Notes: a model not told the origin generated them from the sequence alone. DNA of 64,000 bases from Candidatus Ratteibacteria bacterium (GCA_046296715.1 JBKBIN010000005.1:3621-67620); one strand, 5' to 3'; counted from the first letter of the stretch, positions 3,757 through 50,158 are shown. A program made the numbers and translations.

Positions 3757-5375
3757 TTATCTTTCTTTAATTCTCTCTATTGCAAGATTTATTCTATTTA
3801 TAAGTTCATTAAGTTCTATTGTATTTCTGTTTTTATTTACAAGGATATTTATACCAGGGAGAAAAAATGGTTTTGTAATTATATATTGATTCCCATTCTT
3901 TTCTCCAATAAGTCCTTCAATTGTGAAATAATTATCTTTTATCAATATTTTTCCTTTTATCTCGTTATAGTAAAAGTTAGAAGTTCCAAAGTGTTTAATT
4001 GGGTTGTCTCCACTTAAAGAAGAAAGTATTTCAATTGCACTGAAATTCATTAATTGTTTAACCCCTTTTTTCCTTACTGAATTAAAAAAAGTTTCAATTT
4101 CAAATTTATCTTTACCTATATTAAATTGTCCTTTTATATTCATTAAACCTTCAAACAATATTTTTTCATTAAATGAAAATGCAAGTTTTTTTAAGTTTAT
4201 ATCTTCAATAAAAAATTTACCAATTAAAAAGGAAAAATCTTTGATATTAAGATCAATTTTACCTTTCCCATCATAAAAATTAAAACTTACAAAACCTTGA
4301 AAATCATTATTAAATTTACTTATAACTTTTTCAATTTCAATCTGATGATATTTTAAGTTGTCACAGGTTAAAAAAATTTCAGGTATTTTGAGTTTAAGAT
4401 TTTTAAGTTTTATATCTTTAAAACAGAAATATTTAGATACAAAGATTGCATCTCCGTCAAATTGAATTTTTTTTTTGAATAGTTCAGAATAAAGTTATTT
4501 GAAAAGAGTTTGGCATCATCTGTTTTAAGTTTAAATTTTTTAATTATTTCTTCTGGTAGTATTTTCAAAAACTCATCAAGTGAAAATTCTTCTGTATCAA
4601 AAGAAAATTCAAATTCATTTTGTAAGATAAATCCACTAAATACAAGTTTTTCTCCCTTTTGATTTTTAATTGTGCCTTCTTGTAAGAGAAATTTTTTCTC
4701 AATTGGTAAATATTTGCCTTTTAAAAATATATCAAACTTAGCATCTGAATTATCACAAGAAAGTTCTTTTATTTCAAGATTAAATCTAATTTCTTTTGTA
4801 TTTTCTTTCTCTTTATCAATAAAAATTTTTCCATATATTTTTCCATCAAGAGCCAATTTATAGTTTGTCATTCCAAAAATTTCTTTAAGATTAACTCCAT
4901 TTAACTCTACAATTCCTTCAAACTTCTCTTTTCCCCAATTTGAAAGATTTCCATAAAATTTTAAATTGCCTATATTTTCTATATCAATTTTTGTTGTTGT
5001 AATATTTAGGTTTCCATTAACAATATTACCTTTAACTTTTCCCTCTATCTTTAACTTTTTCCTTTCAGATTTAGAGAAAACTTGGCCAGGCCCTTCAAAA
5101 GCAAAAGCATTTTTTAAAAAATAAGGTTTCAATTTTAATTTATCAATTTTAACAAGTATCCAAGTGTCTTTATATGTAAGGTCTTTTAAGTTTATTTCTT
5201 CTTTTGAAAAATCAATATCCTTAATTGCCCATCTTTCTGTTAAGTTTATATTCCTTATCAAATTTATTCTGAAAAGAATTGAGAGAAAAATAAAAAAAAT
5301 TATTAAAACTACTAAAGGAATAAGAAAAAATTTAATTTTCCTAAAAATTACTTTTTTATTTATTTTCCCTCCCAC
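3757..5375 (-). pseudogene. AsmA-like envelope biogenesis protein, reading frame broken at a T10 (coding-strand A10) run
   Basis: ORFs 4410-5375 and 3757-4158 belong to one gene. After the run at 4467-4476, the alternative frame reads KKKIQFDGDAIFVSKYF...NEKILFEGLMNIKGQF with no stop and joins the 3757-4158 ORF. There is an N-terminal TM anchor. This could equally be a sequencing error. Confidence 0.6.
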
Positions 5376-10907: not shown

Positions 10908-11662
10908 ATTCTATAAAATTTCTTGGAACAGCAGGTGCAAGATTTGTTATGCTTTCTCAATTAAGATCTTCTGGTGGTTTATGGTTTTCAATAAATGGGA
11001 CACAATTTCTTGTTGATCCAGGTCCTGGGACATTAATTAGAGCATTAAAATCAAAACCTAAATTAAATCCTGTTTTACTTGATGCAATTTTTTTATCTCA
11101 CAGACATCTTGACCATTCCTGTGAAATAAATCTTATGATTGAAGCAATGACTGATGGAGGATTTAAAAAGAAAGGAGTAGTTTTTGCCCCTTATGACTGT
11201 TTATACATTGATCCTGTTGTTCTTCTTTATTGTAGGGATTATCTTGAAAGAATTGAAGTTTTAAAGGAAGGCCAAAGATATAATCTTAAAAATTTAATTC
11301 TTGAAATTCCTGGAAAACTTATGCATGGAGTTGAGACTTATGGATTTAAAATTACTGTAAATAATAAACCTGTTTCATATATACCTGATACCTCTTTTTT
11401 CCCTGAGTTAGTTGATTATTATAAAAATAGTGAGATTCTTATCATAAATACTGTTCTTTATGAAAAAAAAGAAAATGTGCAACATTTATGTTTATCAGAA
11501 GCAGAAGAGATAATAAAAAATATAAAACCTAAAAAAGCAATTTTAACCCATTTTGGAATGACAATGTTAAAAAATAAAATATGGGAAAAGAAAGAAGAAA
11601 TTAGCGAAAGAGTTGGAACAGAAGTAATAATTGCAAATGATGGTATGAATTTTGAATTTTAA
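10904..11662 (+). CDS. MBL-fold metallo-hydrolase
   Basis: HRHLDHS motif; 252 aa; ATGA overlap with rpoD. Confidence 0.75.
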   Translation: MNSIKFLGTAGARFVMLSQLRSSGGLWFSINGTQFLVDPGPGTLIRALKSKPKLNPVLLDAIFLSHRHLDHSCEINLMIEAMTDGGFKKKGVVFAPYDCLYIDPVVLLYCRDYLERIEVLKEGQRYNLKNLILEIPGKLMHGVETYGFKITVNNKPVSYIPDTSFFPELVDYYKNSEILIINTVLYEKKENVQHLCLSEAEEIIKNIKPKKAILTHFGMTMLKNKIWEKKEEISERVGTEVIIANDGMNFEF

Positions 11663-39439: not shown

Positions 39440-40373
39440 TTAAATTTCTCTTAATTTATTTAAAAATTCCTTTTCAACTTCATCTAATTGAGTAAAAAGC
39501 CGTTTTTCTGTTAGATCAAAAGAGCGTCTGGGAATTCTATCAATTGAAGAAGTATTTCTCTGGTCTCCATTATGGAAACACCATCCAGCAGCACCATTTT
39601 CTTTTGCACCAAGGAAATCATCTAAAAAATCTGAAAGTTCTGGTTCCCAGTCCTTATTAAATCCTCTACGAAATGGTTCTTGATATAGCAATGACACAAT
39701 CTTTCCTATTTCTTCCATCATCTTATAATACTTCCTTGTAATTTTCCCTGTTTCTTTTGGAGAATTAGGATTTCTTGGGCGATGAATTGCAAGAAAATCA
39801 ACGCCAGTATATAAAATGTATTTAGCCATAGTTTCTATATCCATATCTCCTGAATGTGAAGCAGTGATTAGCAGGTCAGGATTTAATTTTTTAATTTCAT
39901 CTCTTATTACTTTTAAATCTTCAAAACTTACATATCTCTGATTTTTTAAGTTTCTTTCGTTAGCAAGATCTATATAATAGTTTTTAAAATCTTTTAAATT
40001 TTTTATAAGGTTTAAACAAGCATTTAAATGGGACTCTAAGTTTTTAAATCTGGGAATACCAACAATTTCATCCTGTCTTGAAAAAGTTATGTCAACTATT
40101 ATACCAATTTTATAGCATTCATTCAGTATAAATTTAAGACGGGAGAAAAATGGTTCTCTTAAATTTCCTTGATTGTCAACACACGATATATCTTTTCCAA
40201 ATCCATTCCATGTCGCCCAAACTCTTATCCAGTTAAAATTGTATTTTTTTTATATCTTGCAAATCTTCCGAAATAAATCCTTCCTGAGCACCACATCCAG
40301 CAAAATAGCTTATCCCAAGTAAAAAAACAGATTTACTGTTAATTTTAAAAAAATCTTTCTCAATCCCAAGCAT
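39440..40373 (-). pseudogene. GH5-like (clan GH-A TIM-barrel) glycoside hydrolase, frame broken at a T8 (coding-strand A8) run
   Basis: From the ATG at 40371-40373: MLGIEKDFFKINSKSVFLLGISYFAGCGAQEGFISEDLQDIKK, then a stop. The adjacent frame continues YNFNWIRVWATWNGFG...DLANERN...SHSGDMDIETMAKY into ORF 39440-39844. Removing one A from the run at 40244-40251 restores a 310-aa protein. Confidence 0.6.
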
Positions 40374-43678: not shown

Positions 43679-44695
43679 TTAAAAATCAATTATTTCCTCT
43701 TTTTCTATTGATTCAATCATTTTTTCTATTATTTTTACATTAATTAATCCATCTTCAGGTTTAATTATAGGTTGTTTATTCTCATATATACAATCAATAA
43801 AATGTTGAATGGGCAAAGAAGCAAATCCAAAGGGTTTATTATCAACTGGTGTATAACCTGGTAAAAATGGAAAGAGGGTTTGATTTTTTATATCAGAAGA
43901 TATTTTATTTATAGATTCATTGAAATCACACACTAATCTACCTTTGCTCCCTTCGAGTTTAAAATAAAAGTCAACAAGTGCTGGCCAGGATTCTGGTATA
44001 ATCCAGGAAGTTTCTAATGTTGCATAAAATTTACCAAAATCTAAGACAGCAGTCACTGAATCATATGTGTCAACTCCATAACTTGAAAGAACTCCTTTTT
44101 TACCAACAGCATAGATTTTTTTAGGTAAAGATTTTGAAAACCATATAACAAGATCAACAATATGGGGAAATAAGAACCAGTGTGGTCCAGATTTACCAGA
44201 CCATGTAAACCATTTTAAAGGAACATCAATTCTATCACTCAATCTTGAATAGATAAATGATATTTCTCCAACTTCTCCTTTATCAAAACTTTCTTTTAAA
44301 TTTACAAAATATGGATTAAATCTATTATGGAAGTCAGTCATAAGGATTTTTTTAGATAGATTGGACTGTTTTACCATTTCTTCTGCATCTTTTAAACTTG
44401 TTGCCATCGGTTTTTCTACAAGAACATTTTTTCCCTTTTTTAACATTTCACAAACTATATCTTTATGAGCAAAATCAGGAGTTGCTACAGAAACTGCTTG
44501 AATTTCTTTGTCTTCTGCAATTTCTTTGTAATCTTTCGTATATCTTACATTATATTTTTCACTTATTTCTTTTGCTCTCTTTTCATTTATATCACAAATT
44601 TTTACAAGTTCTGCTTTTTCATATGTTTTATAAGTATGAACATGTATTTCTCCAAAAATTCCAGTTCCAATAACTGCACATTTTACTTTTTCCAA
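43679..44695 (-). CDS. Gfo/Idh/MocA family oxidoreductase
   Basis: N-terminal Rossmann motif KCAVIGTGIFG and the EKP motif (VLVEKPMA). Confidence 0.85.
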   Translation of the reverse strand: MEKVKCAVIGTGIFGEIHVHTYKTYEKAELVKICDINEKRAKEISEKYNVRYTKDYKEIAEDKEIQAVSVATPDFAHKDIVCEMLKKGKNVLVEKPMATSLKDAEEMVKQSNLSKKILMTDFHNRFNPYFVNLKESFDKGEVGEISFIYSRLSDRIDVPLKWFTWSGKSGPHWFLFPHIVDLVIWFSKSLPKKIYAVGKKGVLSSYGVDTYDSVTAVLDFGKFYATLETSWIIPESWPALVDFYFKLEGSKGRLVCDFNESINKISSDIKNQTLFPFLPGYTPVDNKPFGFASLPIQHFIDCIYENKQPIIKPEDGLINVKIIEKMIESIEKEEIIDF

Positions 44696-44791
44696 CTTAT
44701 TTCCTTTTTAGTTGTTTTTGATTATAAAATTTTTATAAGGAGATGTCAATTTAAACTTGACATTTTAAAAATAAAAAAGAAAATTAAAAGT

Positions 44792-46648
44792 ATGAGAAAA
44801 AAGAGCTTAGAAAAAATTGAAAAAGCGATTGAATATATTGGGAAGTTAAATAATACAAAAATTGTTAAGGAACTTTCGTGGAGTTGGAATCCTTTTTGTG
44901 AAAGTTATAGATATTTTGACTATTCTAAAAGTGAGGAATATAAAGCAAAAATTACAAGAAACAAGCATATTATTGTAAGGATTTATCCTAAAAAAATTGG
45001 AAAGACCCAGAGTTTTAACGGAAAGAAAGAATATATAATATTTGGAGAAAAAGTTTACAGAAAAACAGATATGGAGATAGTTTCTAATTTTATTCTTGAA
45101 TTTTTAAAAAAGAGGAATTTTGTTTTAGATAATGTTGTTTTAAAAATAAAAAATGAAAAAAGAATTGAAATAATGTTTGATAATCATATAGCAGAAATAG
45201 AAGTTATAAGAACAAAACCAAATTTTGAGTTTATCTTAAAGGATAAAGAATCTGAAAGGCCTTATTTTTGTTCGCCTAATCATCAATATATTTTTAAAGT
45301 TAAAAGCAATATTGAAGTGGATAAAAATCAAGAAATTTTGATTGATTATGAAGAAAGTGAAATTGCAACAACTGGTAACTCTCCTATTGCTTTGATAAAG
45401 AAGGCAATATACGGTTTTGGTAGTTATAATTTAAGAGGTTTTTATTCAGACGAAGGACTTTTTCCTGAAGTTAAACATGGTATAAGACAAATAGTTTATG
45501 GGAATCTTGCAGGTAGTATTGTAGGAGCAAGTGTTTTTGTTAGGGTTGCAGAGAGATTAAAAGGTAATACATGGTATACACTTGCTTCTGGGATTTTGGC
45601 TTTTATAAGAGCTCCTGCTGAAGTATATTTTATGAAAAAATCATTAAAACTTACTGAAAATTTTCCATCATCACTTGTGCAAAAATTTTTTGAAAAAGGA
45701 AAGATTAAAGAAATTTATGAGAGTAAAGAAATTAGGACATGGAGAAATTTTGAAAGGGAAATTTTCAATATTTTGAAAAATAAGCAAGATTTTATATCTC
45801 TTGCAGAAAAATATTCAAATATAAAATTTCAGATTTATAAACTTGTTGAAAAACAGAAAATAGAAGAAATTTACAGGATGCTAAAAGATGAGTTTAACAT
45901 GTCTTTTGAAGAATTGGAAAAGATTAAATATTTTGTAATGCATTTGAAAACTATAGATACTGAAAGAATTATTGAAGAAATCAAGAAAGAAATAAATGGT
46001 CTATATGAGAAAAAAATTTTGAAAATTGGAGGAGAATATATGTTTTTTAAATATATTGATGAAATATTTAAAGAAAATTTGATAAGATTGCCTGTTAATA
46101 AAGCATTTAAGTTTTTAAATGACAGATTGAAAGATGAAGAAAGAGAACCAACCAAAGAGGAAGTTTCAAATTTTATAAGTATATCAAAAAGAAGGATTGA
46201 ACCATTTAGATTTCTTGATTTATTTACTTTTTTCTCTTTATTTATTATGGGATATCTTGCAACTTTTTTAAAAGGATTAAAGGATATGACAATTCTAATT
46301 TATTACATTTTTTATGGAGCAATATCAAATATAATTGTTGCAGCTGTTACAAGATATGGTGGACAAGTAGGACTCCAATATTTGTTTAAAGGACTTGAAA
46401 ATGCTCCAAATATAACAAGTGCTGCTGATGCTTGGAATGAATATAATTCACACATTATGAGATTATGGGCTGTCTTTTCATCACTTGGTATGATAATAGG
46501 AATTTTAGGCAAGGTTTTTTCAGATTTGACAAAAGGTTTTTCAAGATATTTTGTTGAAGGTGTTGCTTTAATTTTATATGTAATGGCTATAAGAGAATGG
46601 TTTTTATATTATCAAAATTTAGAACAAAGAAGTAAAATTGGAGAGTAA
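44792..46648 (+). CDS. Orphan 618-aa membrane protein, no recognisable domain
   Basis: The ORF-track start at 44465 runs antisense through the oxidoreductase gene. The first plausible start is the ATG at 44792, which has a weak SD. The protein has a soluble N-terminal ~200 aa, a hydrophobic pair near aa 235-280, a coiled-coil-like middle and 3-4 C-terminal TM helices. Confidence 0.6.
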   Translation: MRKKSLEKIEKAIEYIGKLNNTKIVKELSWSWNPFCESYRYFDYSKSEEYKAKITRNKHIIVRIYPKKIGKTQSFNGKKEYIIFGEKVYRKTDMEIVSNFILEFLKKRNFVLDNVVLKIKNEKRIEIMFDNHIAEIEVIRTKPNFEFILKDKESERPYFCSPNHQYIFKVKSNIEVDKNQEILIDYEESEIATTGNSPIALIKKAIYGFGSYNLRGFYSDEGLFPEVKHGIRQIVYGNLAGSIVGASVFVRVAERLKGNTWYTLASGILAFIRAPAEVYFMKKSLKLTENFPSSLVQKFFEKGKIKEIYESKEIRTWRNFEREIFNILKNKQDFISLAEKYSNIKFQIYKLVEKQKIEEIYRMLKDEFNMSFEELEKIKYFVMHLKTIDTERIIEEIKKEINGLYEKKILKIGGEYMFFKYIDEIFKENLIRLPVNKAFKFLNDRLKDEEREPTKEEVSNFISISKRRIEPFRFLDLFTFFSLFIMGYLATFLKGLKDMTILIYYIFYGAISNIIVAAVTRYGGQVGLQYLFKGLENAPNITSAADAWNEYNSHIMRLWAVFSSLGMIIGILGKVFSDLTKGFSRYFVEGVALILYVMAIREWFLYYQNLEQRSKIGE

Positions 46649-46649
46649 A

Positions 46650-47066
46650 ATGGGAAAATTAAAGAGATTTGGTGTCTCAATGGAAGAGGGTTTGTTAAAA
46701 AAATTTGATAATTTTATTAAAAGACAGAAATATAAAAATAGGTCAGAGGCGATAAGAGATATTATAAGGGAAAAGTTTGTTGAACAAGAATGGGAAAGAG
46801 GAAAAGATGTAGTCGGATGTATTGTAATTGTTTATGAGCATGATGTAAGAGAAATTGTGGATAGAATAATAGATATCCAGCATAAATTTTCGTCTTATAT
46901 TATATCTTCTCAACATATTCATATGGATGAAGAAAATTGCATGGAGATAATTGTTGTTAAGGGGGATGTGGAGAAAATAGAAGAGTTATATTTTTCGTTG
47001 AAATCCCTTAAAGGAGTTAAGTATTCTAAGGTAACAAAAGCGACTACAGGTAAAAGAATAGAATGA
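46650..47066 (+). CDS. nikR: Nickel-responsive regulator NikR
   Basis: Ribbon-helix-helix N-terminus (RFGVSMEEGLLKKFD...RSEAIRDII). The C-terminal domain has YEH and HIHMDEENC (H-x-H-x5-C nickel ligands). Confidence 0.85.
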   Translation: MGKLKRFGVSMEEGLLKKFDNFIKRQKYKNRSEAIRDIIREKFVEQEWERGKDVVGCIVIVYEHDVREIVDRIIDIQHKFSSYIISSQHIHMDEENCMEIIVVKGDVEKIEELYFSLKSLKGVKYSKVTKATTGKRIE

Positions 47067-48019
47067 GAATTATCTTAACTGGTGGAGCAGGTTTTATCGG
47101 AAGTTGTTTTCTTGATTACTTAAATAGAAAAGGGATAAAAGAGATAGTTGTTGTTGATCATATAAATCAAGAGAAAAAGAAAAATATAGAGAATAAAAAA
47201 TTTAAGGAGTATTATGATAAGGATGAATTCCTACTAAAAATTGAAAAAAAATTTGATAAAAATTTTGATTTCTTAATTCATCTTGGCGCATGCACAAATA
47301 CAAGAGAAACTAATATTGAATATGTCATAAGAAATAATTTTATCTACTCAAAAAAACTTGCTCTTTTCTGTCTTGAGAATGATATTGAATTTATTTATGC
47401 TTCATCTGCTGCAACATATGGAAAAGAAGAAAAAAATTTCTCAGATGATGAGAATAACATTGAAAATTTAGTTCCTTTAAATCTTTACGGACTTTCAAAA
47501 AATCTTTTTGATATATGGGTTGTCTTAAATAAATTTCATAATAATTTTGTTGGACTAAAATTTTTTAATGTTTATGGACCAAACGAAAAACATAAGGGAG
47601 AAATGAAAAGTGTAATTTCAAAAGGATATGAACAGATAAAATATACAGATAAAATAAGATTGTTTAAATCATATAGAGAAGATTATAAAGATGGGGAACA
47701 AAAAAGGGATTTTATTTATGTGATGGATGTTTGTGATGTTATTTGGTTTTTTATTGAGAATAGAAAGAAAAAGGGCATTTACAATGTAGGAACAGGAAAG
47801 GCAAGAAGTTTTAATGAATTGGCTAAAATTTTATTTAAATATCTAAACAAAAGAGAAAATATTGAGTATATTGATATGCCGGACGACATTAAAGATAAAT
47901 ATCAGTATTTCACACAGGCAAATATTGAAAAGTTAAGAAAAGCAGGGTACAGAAAAGATTTTTTAGATTTGGAAGAAGGAATAAAAGAGTTTATATCAGT
48001 TATTTTGCTTGAAAAATAG
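47063..48019 (+). CDS. hldD: ADP-L-glycero-D-manno-heptose 6-epimerase
   Basis: TGGAGFIGS Rossmann motif, SDR-type YGLSK, 318 aa, overall HldD-like layout. Confidence 0.8.
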   Translation: MRIILTGGAGFIGSCFLDYLNRKGIKEIVVVDHINQEKKKNIENKKFKEYYDKDEFLLKIEKKFDKNFDFLIHLGACTNTRETNIEYVIRNNFIYSKKLALFCLENDIEFIYASSAATYGKEEKNFSDDENNIENLVPLNLYGLSKNLFDIWVVLNKFHNNFVGLKFFNVYGPNEKHKGEMKSVISKGYEQIKYTDKIRLFKSYREDYKDGEQKRDFIYVMDVCDVIWFFIENRKKKGIYNVGTGKARSFNELAKILFKYLNKRENIEYIDMPDDIKDKYQYFTQANIEKLRKAGYRKDFLDLEEGIKEFISVILLEK

Positions 48020-48045
48020 AGATAATTCAATTATTATATTATAAA

Positions 48046-48120
48046 GCCCCTGTAGCTCAGGAAGGATAGAGCAGCGGTTTCCTAAACCGCGTGTCGCCCG
48101 TTCAAGTCGGGCCAGGGGCA
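48046..48120 (+). tRNA. tRNA-Arg (anticodon CCU)
   Basis: Acceptor GCCCCTG/CAGGGGC, D arm GCTC/GAGC, anticodon arm GCGGT-TTCCTAA-ACCGC, T arm GCCCG-TTCAAGT-CGGGC. Confidence 0.9.
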
Positions 48121-48141
48121 TTCAGGAAAAACAGAGGGAAA
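48093..48141 (+). repeat. Direct repeat copy 1 (tRNA-Arg 3' part plus 21 nt of flank)
   Basis: GTCGCCCGTTCAAGTCGGGCCAGGGGCATTCAGGAAAAACAGAGGGAAA, identical to 48279-48327. Confidence 0.95.
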
Positions 48142-48278
48142 AGGAGAGACAAAAGGATAGGGAAGGAACTTTAAACGGGCGACACAAAGGGGTTATAGGG
48201 GAAAGGATTGTCCCCTATGTTTTTCGTAGTGGGGGGAGGACTATATCAGGAAGGGGGAAGCACCCCCTCCTGAGATAA
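48142..48278 (+). other. 137-bp GC-rich, hairpin-dense insert between the repeat copies (candidate ncRNA or integration scar)
   Basis: Hairpins at 48195-48218 (8-bp stem) and 48247-48272 (10 bp with one bulge). 48173-48185 is complementary to the tRNA variable/T-arm segment. The composition contrasts with the surrounding sequence. Confidence 0.5.
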
Positions 48279-48327
48279 GTCGCCCGTTCAAGTCGGGCCA
48301 GGGGCATTCAGGAAAAACAGAGGGAAA
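48279..48327 (+). repeat. Direct repeat copy 2
   Basis: Perfect 49-bp copy of 48093-48141; period 186 bp. Confidence 0.95.
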
Positions 48328-48364
48328 TGAATAGGAGAAAAAATAAAAAAAGGAGGTGAGAAAG

Positions 48365-48649
48365 ATGGCAAAATTTATAATGTTTAGTACTTTGACAGAA
48401 AAGGGGGCAAAAACAATAAAACAAAAACCAGATAGGATAAAAGAAGTAAATAAAGAGATTGAAAAAATGGGTGGGAAAATCTTGGAGCAATATGCTATTT
48501 TAGGTCCCTTTGATTTTCTTACAATTATAGAGGTAGAAAATGAAAAAGTCGCTGCAAAAATTTCTCTTGAATTTGCACAAAGAGGGAGTGTAAAAATAAC
48601 AACATACCCAGCAATTGATATAGATGATTTTATAAATATGGTAAAATGA
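48365..48649 (+). CDS. GYD domain-containing protein
   Basis: 94 aa (MAKFIMFSTLTEKGAKTIK...GPFDFLTIIE...) fits the GYD family pattern. The ATG at 48365 follows the extended SD AAAGGAGGTGA. Confidence 0.75.
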   Translation: MAKFIMFSTLTEKGAKTIKQKPDRIKEVNKEIEKMGGKILEQYAILGPFDFLTIIEVENEKVAAKISLEFAQRGSVKITTYPAIDIDDFINMVK

Positions 48650-49416
48650 AATGCAGATTAATTTTATGTGATAATTACGATCCCTTTTTTAATATGGCTT
48701 TTGATTATTATTTTTGGAAAAAATCTGAAAAATTTGAAAACTTGCCTGTTTTGAGATTCTATAAATGGGAGCCAGTTGCTGTTTCAACGGGATATAGACA
48801 AAAAATAAGTAAATTGATTAATTTACAATTCTGTAAAAAAAATAATATCCCTGTTGTTATGAGGCCTACTGGTGGAAGTGCAATTTTTCATGATGTAGAA
48901 ATAACCTACTCTTTATCTGCAAATTTATCACATCATAAATCTTTTTCATCTCCTTATCTTACTTATTTAACCATAAGTAAAGGGTTAATAAACGGTATAG
49001 AAAAATTTGGAATTAAACTAAAAATTAGAGGATTTTCTCAAGGGAAAGAGCCATCTTTTACAGATATGCCATGTTTTTCTTTATCTTCAAGACATGATAT
49101 AGTTTTTAATGAAAAAAAGATTATTGGTTCTGCTCAAAGAAGAAACAATTTTTCTTTTTTACAGCATGGTTCAATTTTAATTGATATTAGAAAAGATTTA
49201 TGGGAAAATATATTTTTAGAGAAAGTTGATTTTTCAAAAATTGGATGTTTGAGTGAATTTGTTTCTGTAAATCAAGAAAAGTTAGTTGAATTTTTAAAAA
49301 ATGGGATAAATGAAGTTTTGAATTTTGAAATATATGAGGATTATCTCAAAGAAGAAGAGAAAAGGGAAATTGAAATTATAGAAAAAAAACTAAAAACGGA
49401 GGGGAAATATGAATAA
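48646..49416 (+). CDS. Lipoate/octanoate-protein ligase family (BPL/LPL catalytic domain) protein
   Basis: RPTGGSAIFHD and KIIGSAQRR motifs; 256 aa; ATGA overlap with the GYD gene. Confidence 0.75.
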   Translation: MKCRLILCDNYDPFFNMAFDYYFWKKSEKFENLPVLRFYKWEPVAVSTGYRQKISKLINLQFCKKNNIPVVMRPTGGSAIFHDVEITYSLSANLSHHKSFSSPYLTYLTISKGLINGIEKFGIKLKIRGFSQGKEPSFTDMPCFSLSSRHDIVFNEKKIIGSAQRRNNFSFLQHGSILIDIRKDLWENIFLEKVDFSKIGCLSEFVSVNQEKLVEFLKNGINEVLNFEIYEDYLKEEEKREIEIIEKKLKTEGKYE

Positions 49417-50158
49417 ATTTTTAGAAAATCTTGGAGTTCAAAGTTATTGTTTCAGGAATTTTAAAGATAATAAAGTTGTGGCAAAGATGATAAAAGAATT
49501 AGGTTTAAACAAGATTGAATTGTGTGGAGTTCATATTGATTTTTTTGATACAAGCAAGTTTAAAGATGTAATTTCTATTTATGAAGAGGAAGGCGTAAAG
49601 ATTTATTCAATAGGAGTTCAATATTTTTCAAATAATGAAATAAATGAGAGGAAGTATTTTGAATTTGTTAAAATTTGTGGAGCAAAATACATAAGCGCTG
49701 ACTTTGATATAAATAAAATTTTTGATTGTTTTAAAGTTGCTGAAAAACTTGCAGAAGAATATGATGTTAAAATTGCTATTCATAATCATGGAGGATGGCA
49801 CTGGCTTGGGAATATCCAGACGCTTGAATATGTTTTTAAAAATACTTCTGAAAGAATAGGACTTTGTCTTGATACTGCATGGGCACTTGATTCAAGGATA
49901 GACCCATTAAAAATGATAGAAACATTTAGTAAAAGATTATATTCTCTTCATTTGAAGGATTTTATTTTTGAAAGAGATAGAAGAGTTGTTGATGTAATTT
50001 TGGGAGAAGGCAATATTGATTTAGAAAAAATTGTTAATAAACTTAAAGATATAAATTTTTCTGGACCACTTATTATTGAATATGAAGGAGAACCAGAAAA
50101 TCCCCTTCCATCTATTAAAAAGGGAATTGAGAATTTCAAAAAAGCAGTCAAATTATAA
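49409..50158 (+). CDS. Sugar phosphate isomerase/epimerase (xylose isomerase-like TIM barrel)
   Basis: 249 aa with IAIHNHG and LHLKD motifs. Confidence 0.7.
   Translation: MNKFLENLGVQSYCFRNFKDNKVVAKMIKELGLNKIELCGVHIDFFDTSKFKDVISIYEEEGVKIYSIGVQYFSNNEINERKYFEFVKICGAKYISADFDINKIFDCFKVAEKLAEEYDVKIAIHNHGGWHWLGNIQTLEYVFKNTSERIGLCLDTAWALDSRIDPLKMIETFSKRLYSLHLKDFIFERDRRVVDVILGEGNIDLEKIVNKLKDINFSGPLIIEYEGEPENPLPSIKKGIENFKKAVKL

Follow-up and report, generated by a model that had tools for sequence, protein, structure and literature searches.

The direct repeat that follows tRNA-Arg(CCU) in the 64,000-nt stretch of DNA analysed here (the window) has a period of 186 bp. We think it probable that this period is one unit of a tRNA-linked RNA repeat element, and that the element belongs to a new family built like the RtT element of Escherichia coli. 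The family is without a match in Rfam, and its members are RtT-like elements linked to tRNA and tmRNA genes.

A repeat unit directly 3' of tRNA-Arg(CCU)

ARAGORN and Rfam agree on a tRNA-Arg(CCU) gene at 48046-48120, where the earlier note on this DNA had placed it, and the 49-bp perfect repeat described there is present (48093-48141 = 48279-48327, period 186, zero mismatches; Table 1). The first 28 nt of copy 1 (Y1) form the 3' end of the tRNA, comprising the end of the variable loop, the T arm, the 3' strand of the acceptor stem and the discriminator; this 28-nt tRNA part has two exact occurrences in the window, with 0 expected from shuffles. The insert between the copies (137 bp) contains no ORF. 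As had been noticed, it is G+C-rich and bears two strong hairpins (P2 and P4), with a G+C content of 47-56% in 100-nt windows against 27.5% for the window as a whole. Islands of at least 50% G+C (80-nt windows) are found only at the four tRNA genes, the tRNA-Arg island extending through the insert, and seven weaker islands at 45-47.5% lie elsewhere in the window.

Upstream of the conserved core lies a segment, y', that is antisense to the tRNA. In inverted repeat I8, 48171-48185 is complementary to 48091-48105 over 15 nt with one mismatch. The antisense match reported in the earlier note is thus present, with an exact length of 12 nt rather than 13 (48174-48185, reverse complement of 48091-48102). 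The calculated duplex energy of y' is -26.0 kcal/mol with tRNA-Arg and -21.7 kcal/mol with repeat copy 2. The gene downstream of the repeat encodes a GYD-domain protein, again as first described (Pfam E = 1.2e-26); its ATG, at 48365, is located 37 nt past copy 2 and is preceded by a AAGGAGGTGA Shine-Dalgarno sequence. A crude motif scan of the window (H.LRH[TS], YxDD) found no recombinase motif and one match to the YxDD pattern (FLDDF, minus strand near 39628).

Table 1. Features of the repeat unit and its 5' flank, in window coordinates.
Feature	Position	Strand	Evidence or remark
Candidate promoter-like site 5' of tRNA-Arg(CCU), TTGAAA / 17 nt / TATTAT	48009-48037	+	Consensus scan, 10/12 matches
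tRNA-Arg(CCU), complete, CCA not encoded	48046-48120	+	ARAGORN; Rfam tRNA, 59.1 bits
Repeat copy 1: Y1 (48093-48120) and 21 nt of spacer	48093-48141	+	
Purine-rich spacer	48121-48169	+	Alignments: length 10 to ~60 nt, sequence differs by lineage
Anti-segment y' (TTTAAACGGGCGACAC)	48170-48185	+	Inverted repeat I8; antisense to tRNA-Arg variable loop, T-stem 5' strand and part of T loop
Conserved core: AAAGGGGT, P2, U-rich joiner, TGGGGGGAGGA, P4, linker GATAA	48186-48278	+	Covariance model R1
Hairpin P2, 9 pairs, 8-nt loop, followed by U run	48194-48219	+	Resembles an intrinsic terminator
Hairpin P4 (TCAGGA-A-GGGGG AAGCA CCCCC-TCCTGA), 6+5 pairs, one bulged A	48246-48273	+	
Y2, repeat of the final 28 nt of tRNA-Arg(CCU)	48279-48306	+	Start can pair with y' to give closing helix P1
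First 21 nt of the spacer, repeated	48307-48327	+	Read as the start of a truncated second unit

The unit is conserved behind tRNA-Arg(CCU) in related lineages

The flanking epimerase assigns the contig to Candidatus Omnitrophota. Relatives were reached with its protein and with two DNA patterns. In every relative reached, the module lies 3' of tRNA-Arg(CCU) (L001, L011-L014, L015-L022, L035 and L039; at least 10 independent assemblies). These assemblies came independently from NCBI, ENA and JGI, and since the module was recovered from at least 10 of them it is very unlikely that the repeat is an assembly artefact. The number of units varies. Loci L011-L019, L022 and L035 contain one unit, L039 contains one unit and a truncated second, and L020 and L021 contain two, and in L001 the tRNA is followed by three or more copies of its 3' part, arranged around an assembly gap, with a truncated unit at the end. 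The window contains one full unit and the first 49 nt of a truncated second. We read its extra 21 nt as the start of a second unit because most single-unit relatives duplicate the 28-nt tRNA part only, and because the arrays of L001 and L039 likewise end in truncated units.

The core (~93 nt) varies very little between lineages, as does the second tRNA 3' copy, and the spacer is unalignable. The orthologous cores are 0.90-0.97 identical to that of the window. Identity to the window at four-fold sites of the flanking epimerase and LplA genes is 0.49-0.81 (0.71-0.81 for L001 and 0.49-0.64 for all other relatives). Judged from these alignments, the Arg(CCU) copy is vertically inherited and under purifying selection, since its core has kept 90-97% identity while four-fold sites have kept 49-81%. 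At the position that matches the candidate promoter of the window, the relatives have TTGACA and an extended -10 element. A small ORF of 16 codons in the L001 spacer was rejected, as the relatives do not conserve it.

The second tRNA copy is altered in several relatives, with C56 changed to U in the T loop of Y2 in L011, L015 and L020, U54 changed to G in L035, and damaged acceptor strands in L012 and L019. Because these T-loop positions are universally conserved in tRNA, Y2 is not kept as a working T arm.

The same core occurs behind many tRNA genes and tmRNA

The core is also found 3' of tRNA genes for Leu-UAA, Leu-CAG, Leu-UAG, Leu-GAG, Val-CAC, Val-UAC, Ser-UGA, Lys-CUU, Gly-UCC and Arg-GCG, and 3' of tmRNA, so that with Arg(CCU) its hosts number at least 11 tRNA species and tmRNA. 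In L015, it is present behind tRNA-Leu(UAA) too, where it lies between Leu-specific sequences. The copies follow a common plan: y' is antisense to the variable region, T-stem 5' strand and T loop of the local tRNA, the core follows, and the unit ends in a sense copy (Y) of the local tRNA from the variable region to the 3' end. At every locus with the upstream gene present, the element is located directly 3' of a tRNA or tmRNA gene and is co-oriented with it. As far as can be read from sequence, one and the same core behaves as a cassette in which y' and Y match the local tRNA.

The specificity of the anti-segments was scored by duplex energies; a search for perfect runs was too noisy. In a 15 x 15 matrix, 11 of the 15 anti-segments have their own tRNA as best partner, and for a twelfth (tmRNA, L040) the sole better partner is another tmRNA copy. 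The remaining exceptions are an artefact of the purine-rich spacer of the window, a Val copy that prefers a closely related Val tRNA, and a chimeric copy with a Val-type y' behind a Ser tRNA. Two further chimeras, L036 and L023, whose 3' copy comes from a different tRNA or from tmRNA, suggest that copies have recombined.

When one genome per species was scanned, several MAGs of Omnitrophota and Candidatus Ratteibacteria proved to be carriers, the largest number of loci in one genome being five (STE_142, 5; SRP231805_co4_9, 5; KM4337-25, 3; DG_1_4.bins.104, 3). The element is modular, with a short or a long linker, an optional domain of ~150 nt (L027) and a second core type, and many contigs break at it. 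At tRNA-Leu(UAA) it is absent in the window and present in L015, L025, L026 and L045. Comparing the empty site of the window with the filled site of L045, we found the upstream flank 95% aligned and synteny stopping at the tRNA; none of the loci compared gave a clean pair of empty and filled sites whose flanks could be aligned.

Predicted RNA structure of the element

A covariance model (R1) built from the core finds all copies. In the window it has a single strong match (48186-48284, 115.3 bits); the other match is weak (14.6 bits, E 0.33) and corresponds to the reverse strand of P4. The hairpins are kept at homologous loci, as would be expected of the structured insert that had been proposed. 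P2 has compensatory changes in eight of its nine pairs among 36 distinct sequences. None of 500 shuffles reached the observed values for percent paired, for pairs with two-sided change, for cells with such change or for the covariation score, and the count of further pair types showed no excess over shuffles (437 of 500). P4 is invariant in all copies, an invariance that is not independent evidence because the search pattern lay inside P4. G-U pairs occur only when the plus strand is read (GGGTGACAC in y' of L020, and P2 of L044), which argues for an RNA with the same strand as the tRNA.

The tRNA and element together have a fold z-score of -4.3, and the element alone has one of -2.7. In the predicted minimum-energy fold of the element alone, y' pairs with Y2 (P1) and closes a junction that bears P2 and P4. 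No pairing partner was found for the conserved G-runs AAAGGGGU and UGGGGGGAGGA. The one extra helix proposed by RNAalifold, between the 3' strand of P2 and the downstream G-run, was set aside as uninformative because any pyrimidine run pairs with the G-run. A minihelix of the P4 3' strand with the acceptor 3' strand was also rejected on inspection by eye, with six pairs for Arg and none possible for Leu.

Searches for known families

Rfam identified tRNA only in the window (47000-49500, with no RtT at E up to 10), and tRNA and tmRNA only in the related loci, including the copy with the ~150-nt domain and the second core type. The RtT family (RF00391, gathering threshold 45 bits) was absent from eight related loci at E up to 0.1 and from L030 (2700-3200) at E up to 10, whereas the positive control gave four E. 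coli matches of 133-138 bits. A match to a known RNA family or IS, raised at the outset as a possible refutation, was not found for the insert. A group I intron in tRNA-Arg(CCU) was rejected, the anticodon loop being intact and no intron family matching. No small self-cleaving ribozyme (hammerhead, hairpin, twister, pistol, hatchet or HDV-like) matched in Rfam at E up to 10; by eye, the CUGAAGA of the long-linker copies is without the GAAA and stem II of a hammerhead.

A MITE or other transposon was likewise rejected. The element lacks terminal inverted repeats of its own; its end sequences are derived from the tRNA and change with it. The repeat ranges from 28 to at least 49 nt, which is better explained by array periodicity than by a fixed target duplication. 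In viral contigs, two element-specific (type-A) patterns gave 0 matches, and the 15-mer GAGGAGCGAAGCGAC occurred at 123 sites, none near a tRNA, which is the chance level.

A proposed route from transcript to element RNA

By analogy with RtT, the element would be co-transcribed with tRNA-Arg(CCU) from the tRNA promoter. The tRNA would fold before the element and be cut out, the downstream RNA could close on itself through y':Y2 (P1) to give a three-helix RNA, and the machinery of tRNA 3' processing would fix its 3' end at the duplicated acceptor end. The number of units would rise and fall through recombination between tRNA 3' copies. Of the three explanations in the earlier note, a structured, co-transcribed small RNA with a tRNA-like 3' handle is the closest to this proposal, and it fits the E. 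coli precedent.

Several observations sit uneasily with it. P2 and its U run are terminator-like and could halt transcription ahead of P4 and Y2. The y' segment is a better partner for the real tRNA than for Y2, with pairing that reaches 2-3 nt further, and the simple P1 model leaves this unexplained. Recognition by RNase Z and the CCA-adding enzyme is uncertain because CCA is not encoded and because Y2 forms no minihelix if y' holds the T-stem 5' strand. As to how matching y' and Y arise at a new tRNA, the integrase, transposase and simple target-duplication models each fail some feature.

Alternative explanations

We hold it possible but unlikely that the element is primarily a selfish mobile element, non-autonomous and targeting tRNA and tmRNA genes in their 3' part, whose RNA has no host role. 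It might pass through an RNA intermediate with y' as the target guide, and insertion would duplicate the tRNA from the variable loop to the transcript end. Its multiple copies in single genomes, its many tRNA species with matching ends, its presence or absence at tRNA-Leu(UAA), the truncated and chimeric copies (L001, L039, L023, L029 and L036), the frequent contig breaks, and a y' that crosses the duplication boundary to pair deeper into the intact tRNA than into the copy would all be in keeping with such an element. The high identity of the Arg-CCU orthologues relative to their four-fold sites, however, is unexpected for dead copies, and remaking y' for each new tRNA has no known mechanism. 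Nor was there a clean empty/filled pair, a linked reverse transcriptase or recombinase (the crude window scan gave the one YxDD-pattern match), or a match of either type-A pattern tried to viral contigs. The tiny non-autonomous tRNA-targeting element suggested in the earlier note holds as far as a multi-copy family tied to tRNA 3' ends is concerned. For its other part, insertion, we saw neither an event nor a pair of empty and filled sites, and the Arg copy appears to descend vertically and to be under selection. We consider a "long tRNA" highly unlikely, even though it is the nearest-neighbour optimum of 48046-48306 (-106.6 kcal/mol, against -96.7 with the cloverleaf enforced, at 37 C; -51.2 against -46.9 at 65 C). 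In this fold the tRNA-Arg 5' half would form the acceptor stem with Y2, which would also provide the T arm; the first 3' part would be sequestered by y', and the core would be displayed as a giant variable arm. The insertion point is in the variable region, which tolerates long arms, and the first copy offers y' more complementarity than Y2 does. Against it stand the T-loop and acceptor changes in the Y2 of relatives, the 3' copies of another tRNA or of tmRNA in L036 and L023, which cannot pair with the upstream 5' strand, and the E. coli RtT, which duplicates 19 nt only and is without the T-stem 5' strand; co-transcriptional folding, too, favors the normal tRNA.

We give very little credence to a purely DNA-level element, in which the repeats and hairpins would act in DNA that is single-stranded or cruciform, as a site for recombination, replication or a nuclease, and the RNA would be irrelevant. 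GCGAAGC-type motifs form very stable DNA mini-hairpins, and GCGAAGC, GCGTAGC and GCGCAGC are found in the relatives and in RtT; DNA hairpins also tolerate G-T wobble, and arrays and rearrangements occur at the element. On the other side, the element always comes directly after a transcribed tRNA or tmRNA gene and shares its orientation, the window, at 27% G+C, has its other islands of at least 50% G+C at tRNA genes only, and the E. coli rtT is a detected RNA. A decayed attL/attR scar of an integrative element, or an assembly artefact, deserves next to no credence. Integration classically leaves a duplicated tRNA 3' end behind (PMC9897764), and a real island uses the same tRNA-Arg(CCU) in a sister lineage, but that island sits at the anticodon loop and leaves a 40-nt 5' fragment of the tRNA, and is thus a different event. 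An artefact is at odds with the independent assemblies, and the scar put forward in the earlier note is refuted in practice by the tandem arrays, the covariation in P2 and an insert that is structured, multi-copy and conserved far beyond neutral sites at the orthologous locus in many lineages. An attP carries the sequence of one tRNA, so that a single tRNA site would be expected, and this core stands behind at least 11 tRNA species and tmRNA with ends specific to each; nor would an att site need an antisense segment.

Significance

The elements provide a comparative framework for the tyrosine-tRNA repeats of E. coli, as they show the same plan in a distant phylum with an unrelated core. The RtT plan thereby changes from a single-organism curiosity to a class that covers a dozen tRNA species and tmRNA and is under purifying selection, and its testable parts are defined: the guide, the GA/GA centre, the boundary at the variable or T loop, and the 3' tail. 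There are practical consequences as well. The elements break metagenomic assemblies at tRNA genes, and annotation pipelines would read the tRNA 3' fragments that they make as integration scars or pseudo-tRNAs.

A more far-reaching proposal, to which we assign a distinctly low probability, is that the E. coli RtT and the Omnitrophota/Ratteibacteria elements form one widespread class of retargetable RNA cassettes whose guide directs a reaction of the tRNA or tmRNA 3' part. The guide may be the bipartite antisense segment, with its GA/GA centre, that crosses the duplication boundary. The reaction could take place at the RNA level or be RNA-templated, as ligation, exchange of the 3' part, or copying. 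If true, this would explain both the colonisation of new tRNA genes with matching ends and the conservation of the cassette, and the cassettes would represent guide-directed elements of a new kind, lacking protein genes of their own.

Comparison with known systems

MITE-like repeats and BIME/REP elements are likewise short, G+C-rich, hairpin-forming, multi-copy, intergenic and modular. The present element differs from them in its strict location at tRNA and tmRNA 3' ends, its tRNA-specific ends and its fixed orientation. Islands between the att fragments of integrases share with it a direct repeat of the tRNA 3' portion that flanks an insert and leaves the tRNA intact, whereas the insert here is a conserved, gene-free cargo of 137 bp that carries an antisense segment and occurs at many tRNAs and in tandem. 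Spacer RNAs of tRNA operons, such as the 3' external transcribed spacer of leuZ, which is a sponge for sRNAs, resemble it as by-products of tRNA-precursor processing with a possible role of their own, but are without a tRNA 3' copy, an antisense segment, tandem units or a multi-locus family.

The closest counterpart is RtT. Repeats behind the tyrosine tRNA genes of E. coli have been known since the late 1970s and the rtT RNA since 1991; those of the tyrT operon are 178 bp long and each ends in the last 19 nt of tRNA-Tyr. The tyrT/tyrV locus contains four RtT copies (Rfam RF00391; gene rttR), each with a 22-nt segment antisense to the T arm, a core and the final 19 nt of tRNA-Tyr, and rttR is annotated as starting 7 nt past tyrV and ending at the duplicated CCA. 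The antisense segment pairs with tRNA-Tyr through 10 pairs, a 2x2 GA/GA internal loop and 10 more pairs (-35 to -38 kcal/mol), and the closing helix of the Rfam consensus joins GGGGAAGGAU with the duplicated AUCCUUCCCC. RtT RNAs are described as being released from tRNA operon transcripts during processing (PMC4986893; PMC3318445), RNAs of the family are reported to adjoin several tRNA species (PMC4986893), and one paper notes a resemblance of rtT to BIMEs (PMC2965389). The function of RtT is described in the literature as unknown, and the analogy thus explains the form of the present element and not its purpose.

There are clear differences between the two. The RtT core has no detectable homology to the present core, and R1 finds nothing in the E. 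coli locus; in sequence similarity to RtT, the short-linker copy of the window and the second core type are no better than shuffles. The duplication starts in the variable loop here (28 nt, the whole T arm) and in the T loop in RtT (19 nt), CCA is not encoded in the tRNA of the present element, and tmRNA genes are also used, unlike in RtT. The hosts are an Omnitrophota-like lineage of thermal springs and a gamma-proteobacterium, respectively. As the window copy shows no significant similarity to RtT, the link rests on architecture together with one motif in the relatives. Both elements are located directly 3' of a tRNA on the same strand and in tandem, both have units made of a spacer, a T-arm antisense, a structured core rich in G+C and a repeat, in sense orientation, of the tRNA 3' end, and in both the antisense segment and the 3' copy close the structure. 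The GA/GA internal loop of the RtT antisense duplex is also found in the Val, Lys, Leu-UAA and tmRNA copies. The motif is the 16-mer TGAGGAGCGAAGCGAC, which is common to one E. coli RtT copy and the type-A long-linker copies L025, L027 and L047, and in E. coli and the long-linker copies alike it lies directly before the tRNA 3' copy.

A genomic island and a conserved reading frame near tRNA-Arg(CCU)

In one sister lineage the epimerase gene that flanks tRNA-Arg(CCU) is separated from it by a genomic island encoding a type I restriction enzyme, a tyrosine integrase and a ParE-like toxin. The tyrosine integrase lies directly upstream of the intact tRNA-Arg(CCU), and the tRNA fragment left adjoining the epimerase gene consists of the first 40 nt. 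The island integrated in the anticodon loop of tRNA-Arg(CCU), and its integration and the repeat element are two separate events.

A conserved ORF of 617-727 aa, located upstream of the NikR-like gene in the window, has a counterpart in every syntenic relative (L001-L006, L008-L014) and no match in Pfam.

Variation among element copies

The P2 core hairpin of the window copy, followed by TTTTT, fits the pattern of an intrinsic terminator. The Arg and Leu copies share this T run, which the Val and tmRNA copies lack. In the copy behind tRNA-Leu(CAG), the U-rich joiner and the G-run are separated by an additional G+C-rich domain of ~150 nt. This copy had no match in Rfam, and more partial units come after it. 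In the Ratteibacteria MAG STE_142 (L029, L038, L043), short tandem CAGTGATTAGTGA-like repeats fill the spacers that separate the elements from tRNA or tmRNA genes. Numerous contigs terminate within or next to the element (L011-L014, L023, L024, L031, L032, L036, L044, L045), and short-read assemblies appear to be broken by it at tRNA genes.

Positions of features in the window and in related loci (L049, E. coli tyrT/tyrV locus; other L-numbers, Omnitrophota/Ratteibacteria assemblies)
Feature	Locus	Positions	Strand
P2 and T run	window	48194-48229	
ORF upstream of NikR-like gene	window	44465-46648	
ORF upstream of NikR-like gene	L001	1730-3586	
Island-related site	L003-L006	~5066-5105	
Island-related site	L016	~11127-11470	-
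Island-related site	L018	~1135-1497	
tRNA-Leu(CAG) copy with extra domain	L027	955-1200	
Second element type	L030	2790-2920	
Second element type	L037	705-850	
Second element type	L043	from 7150	
Second element type	L044	from 190	
Second element type	L029	2030-2260	
GA opposite GA (or GCA)	L049	1380-1400, 1660-1690	-
GA opposite GA (or GCA)	L025, L030, L034, L042, L043	antisense segments	

A second element type and likeness to the E. coli RtT repeat

We found a second element type, occurring in tandem with the first, whose core is unlike that of the first and reads GGGAGCGAAGTAAGAAATTGCGACGGGTAGGAG...GGCCGACCCGAG...GGCGAGGGCGCC; it had no match in Rfam. Only the tRNA from the T loop onward is duplicated, the same boundary as in RtT, the repeat of the E. 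coli tRNA-Tyr operon, and the antisense segment spans the T loop and the 3' strand of the T stem.

GCGAAGC, GCGTAGC and GCGCAGC recur immediately 5' of the tRNA 3' copy, in the linkers of L025, L026, L045 and L047 as well as in the E. coli RtT copies. GNA-loop mini-hairpins of this kind are highly stable in DNA. For four tRNA types of this element family, a GA in the antisense segment faces GA (or GCA) of the tRNA, while for targets that lack GA (Arg-CCU, Leu-CAG) the antisense segment is fully complementary. The RtT antisense segment of E. coli likewise places GA opposite GA (or GCA) of its tRNA.
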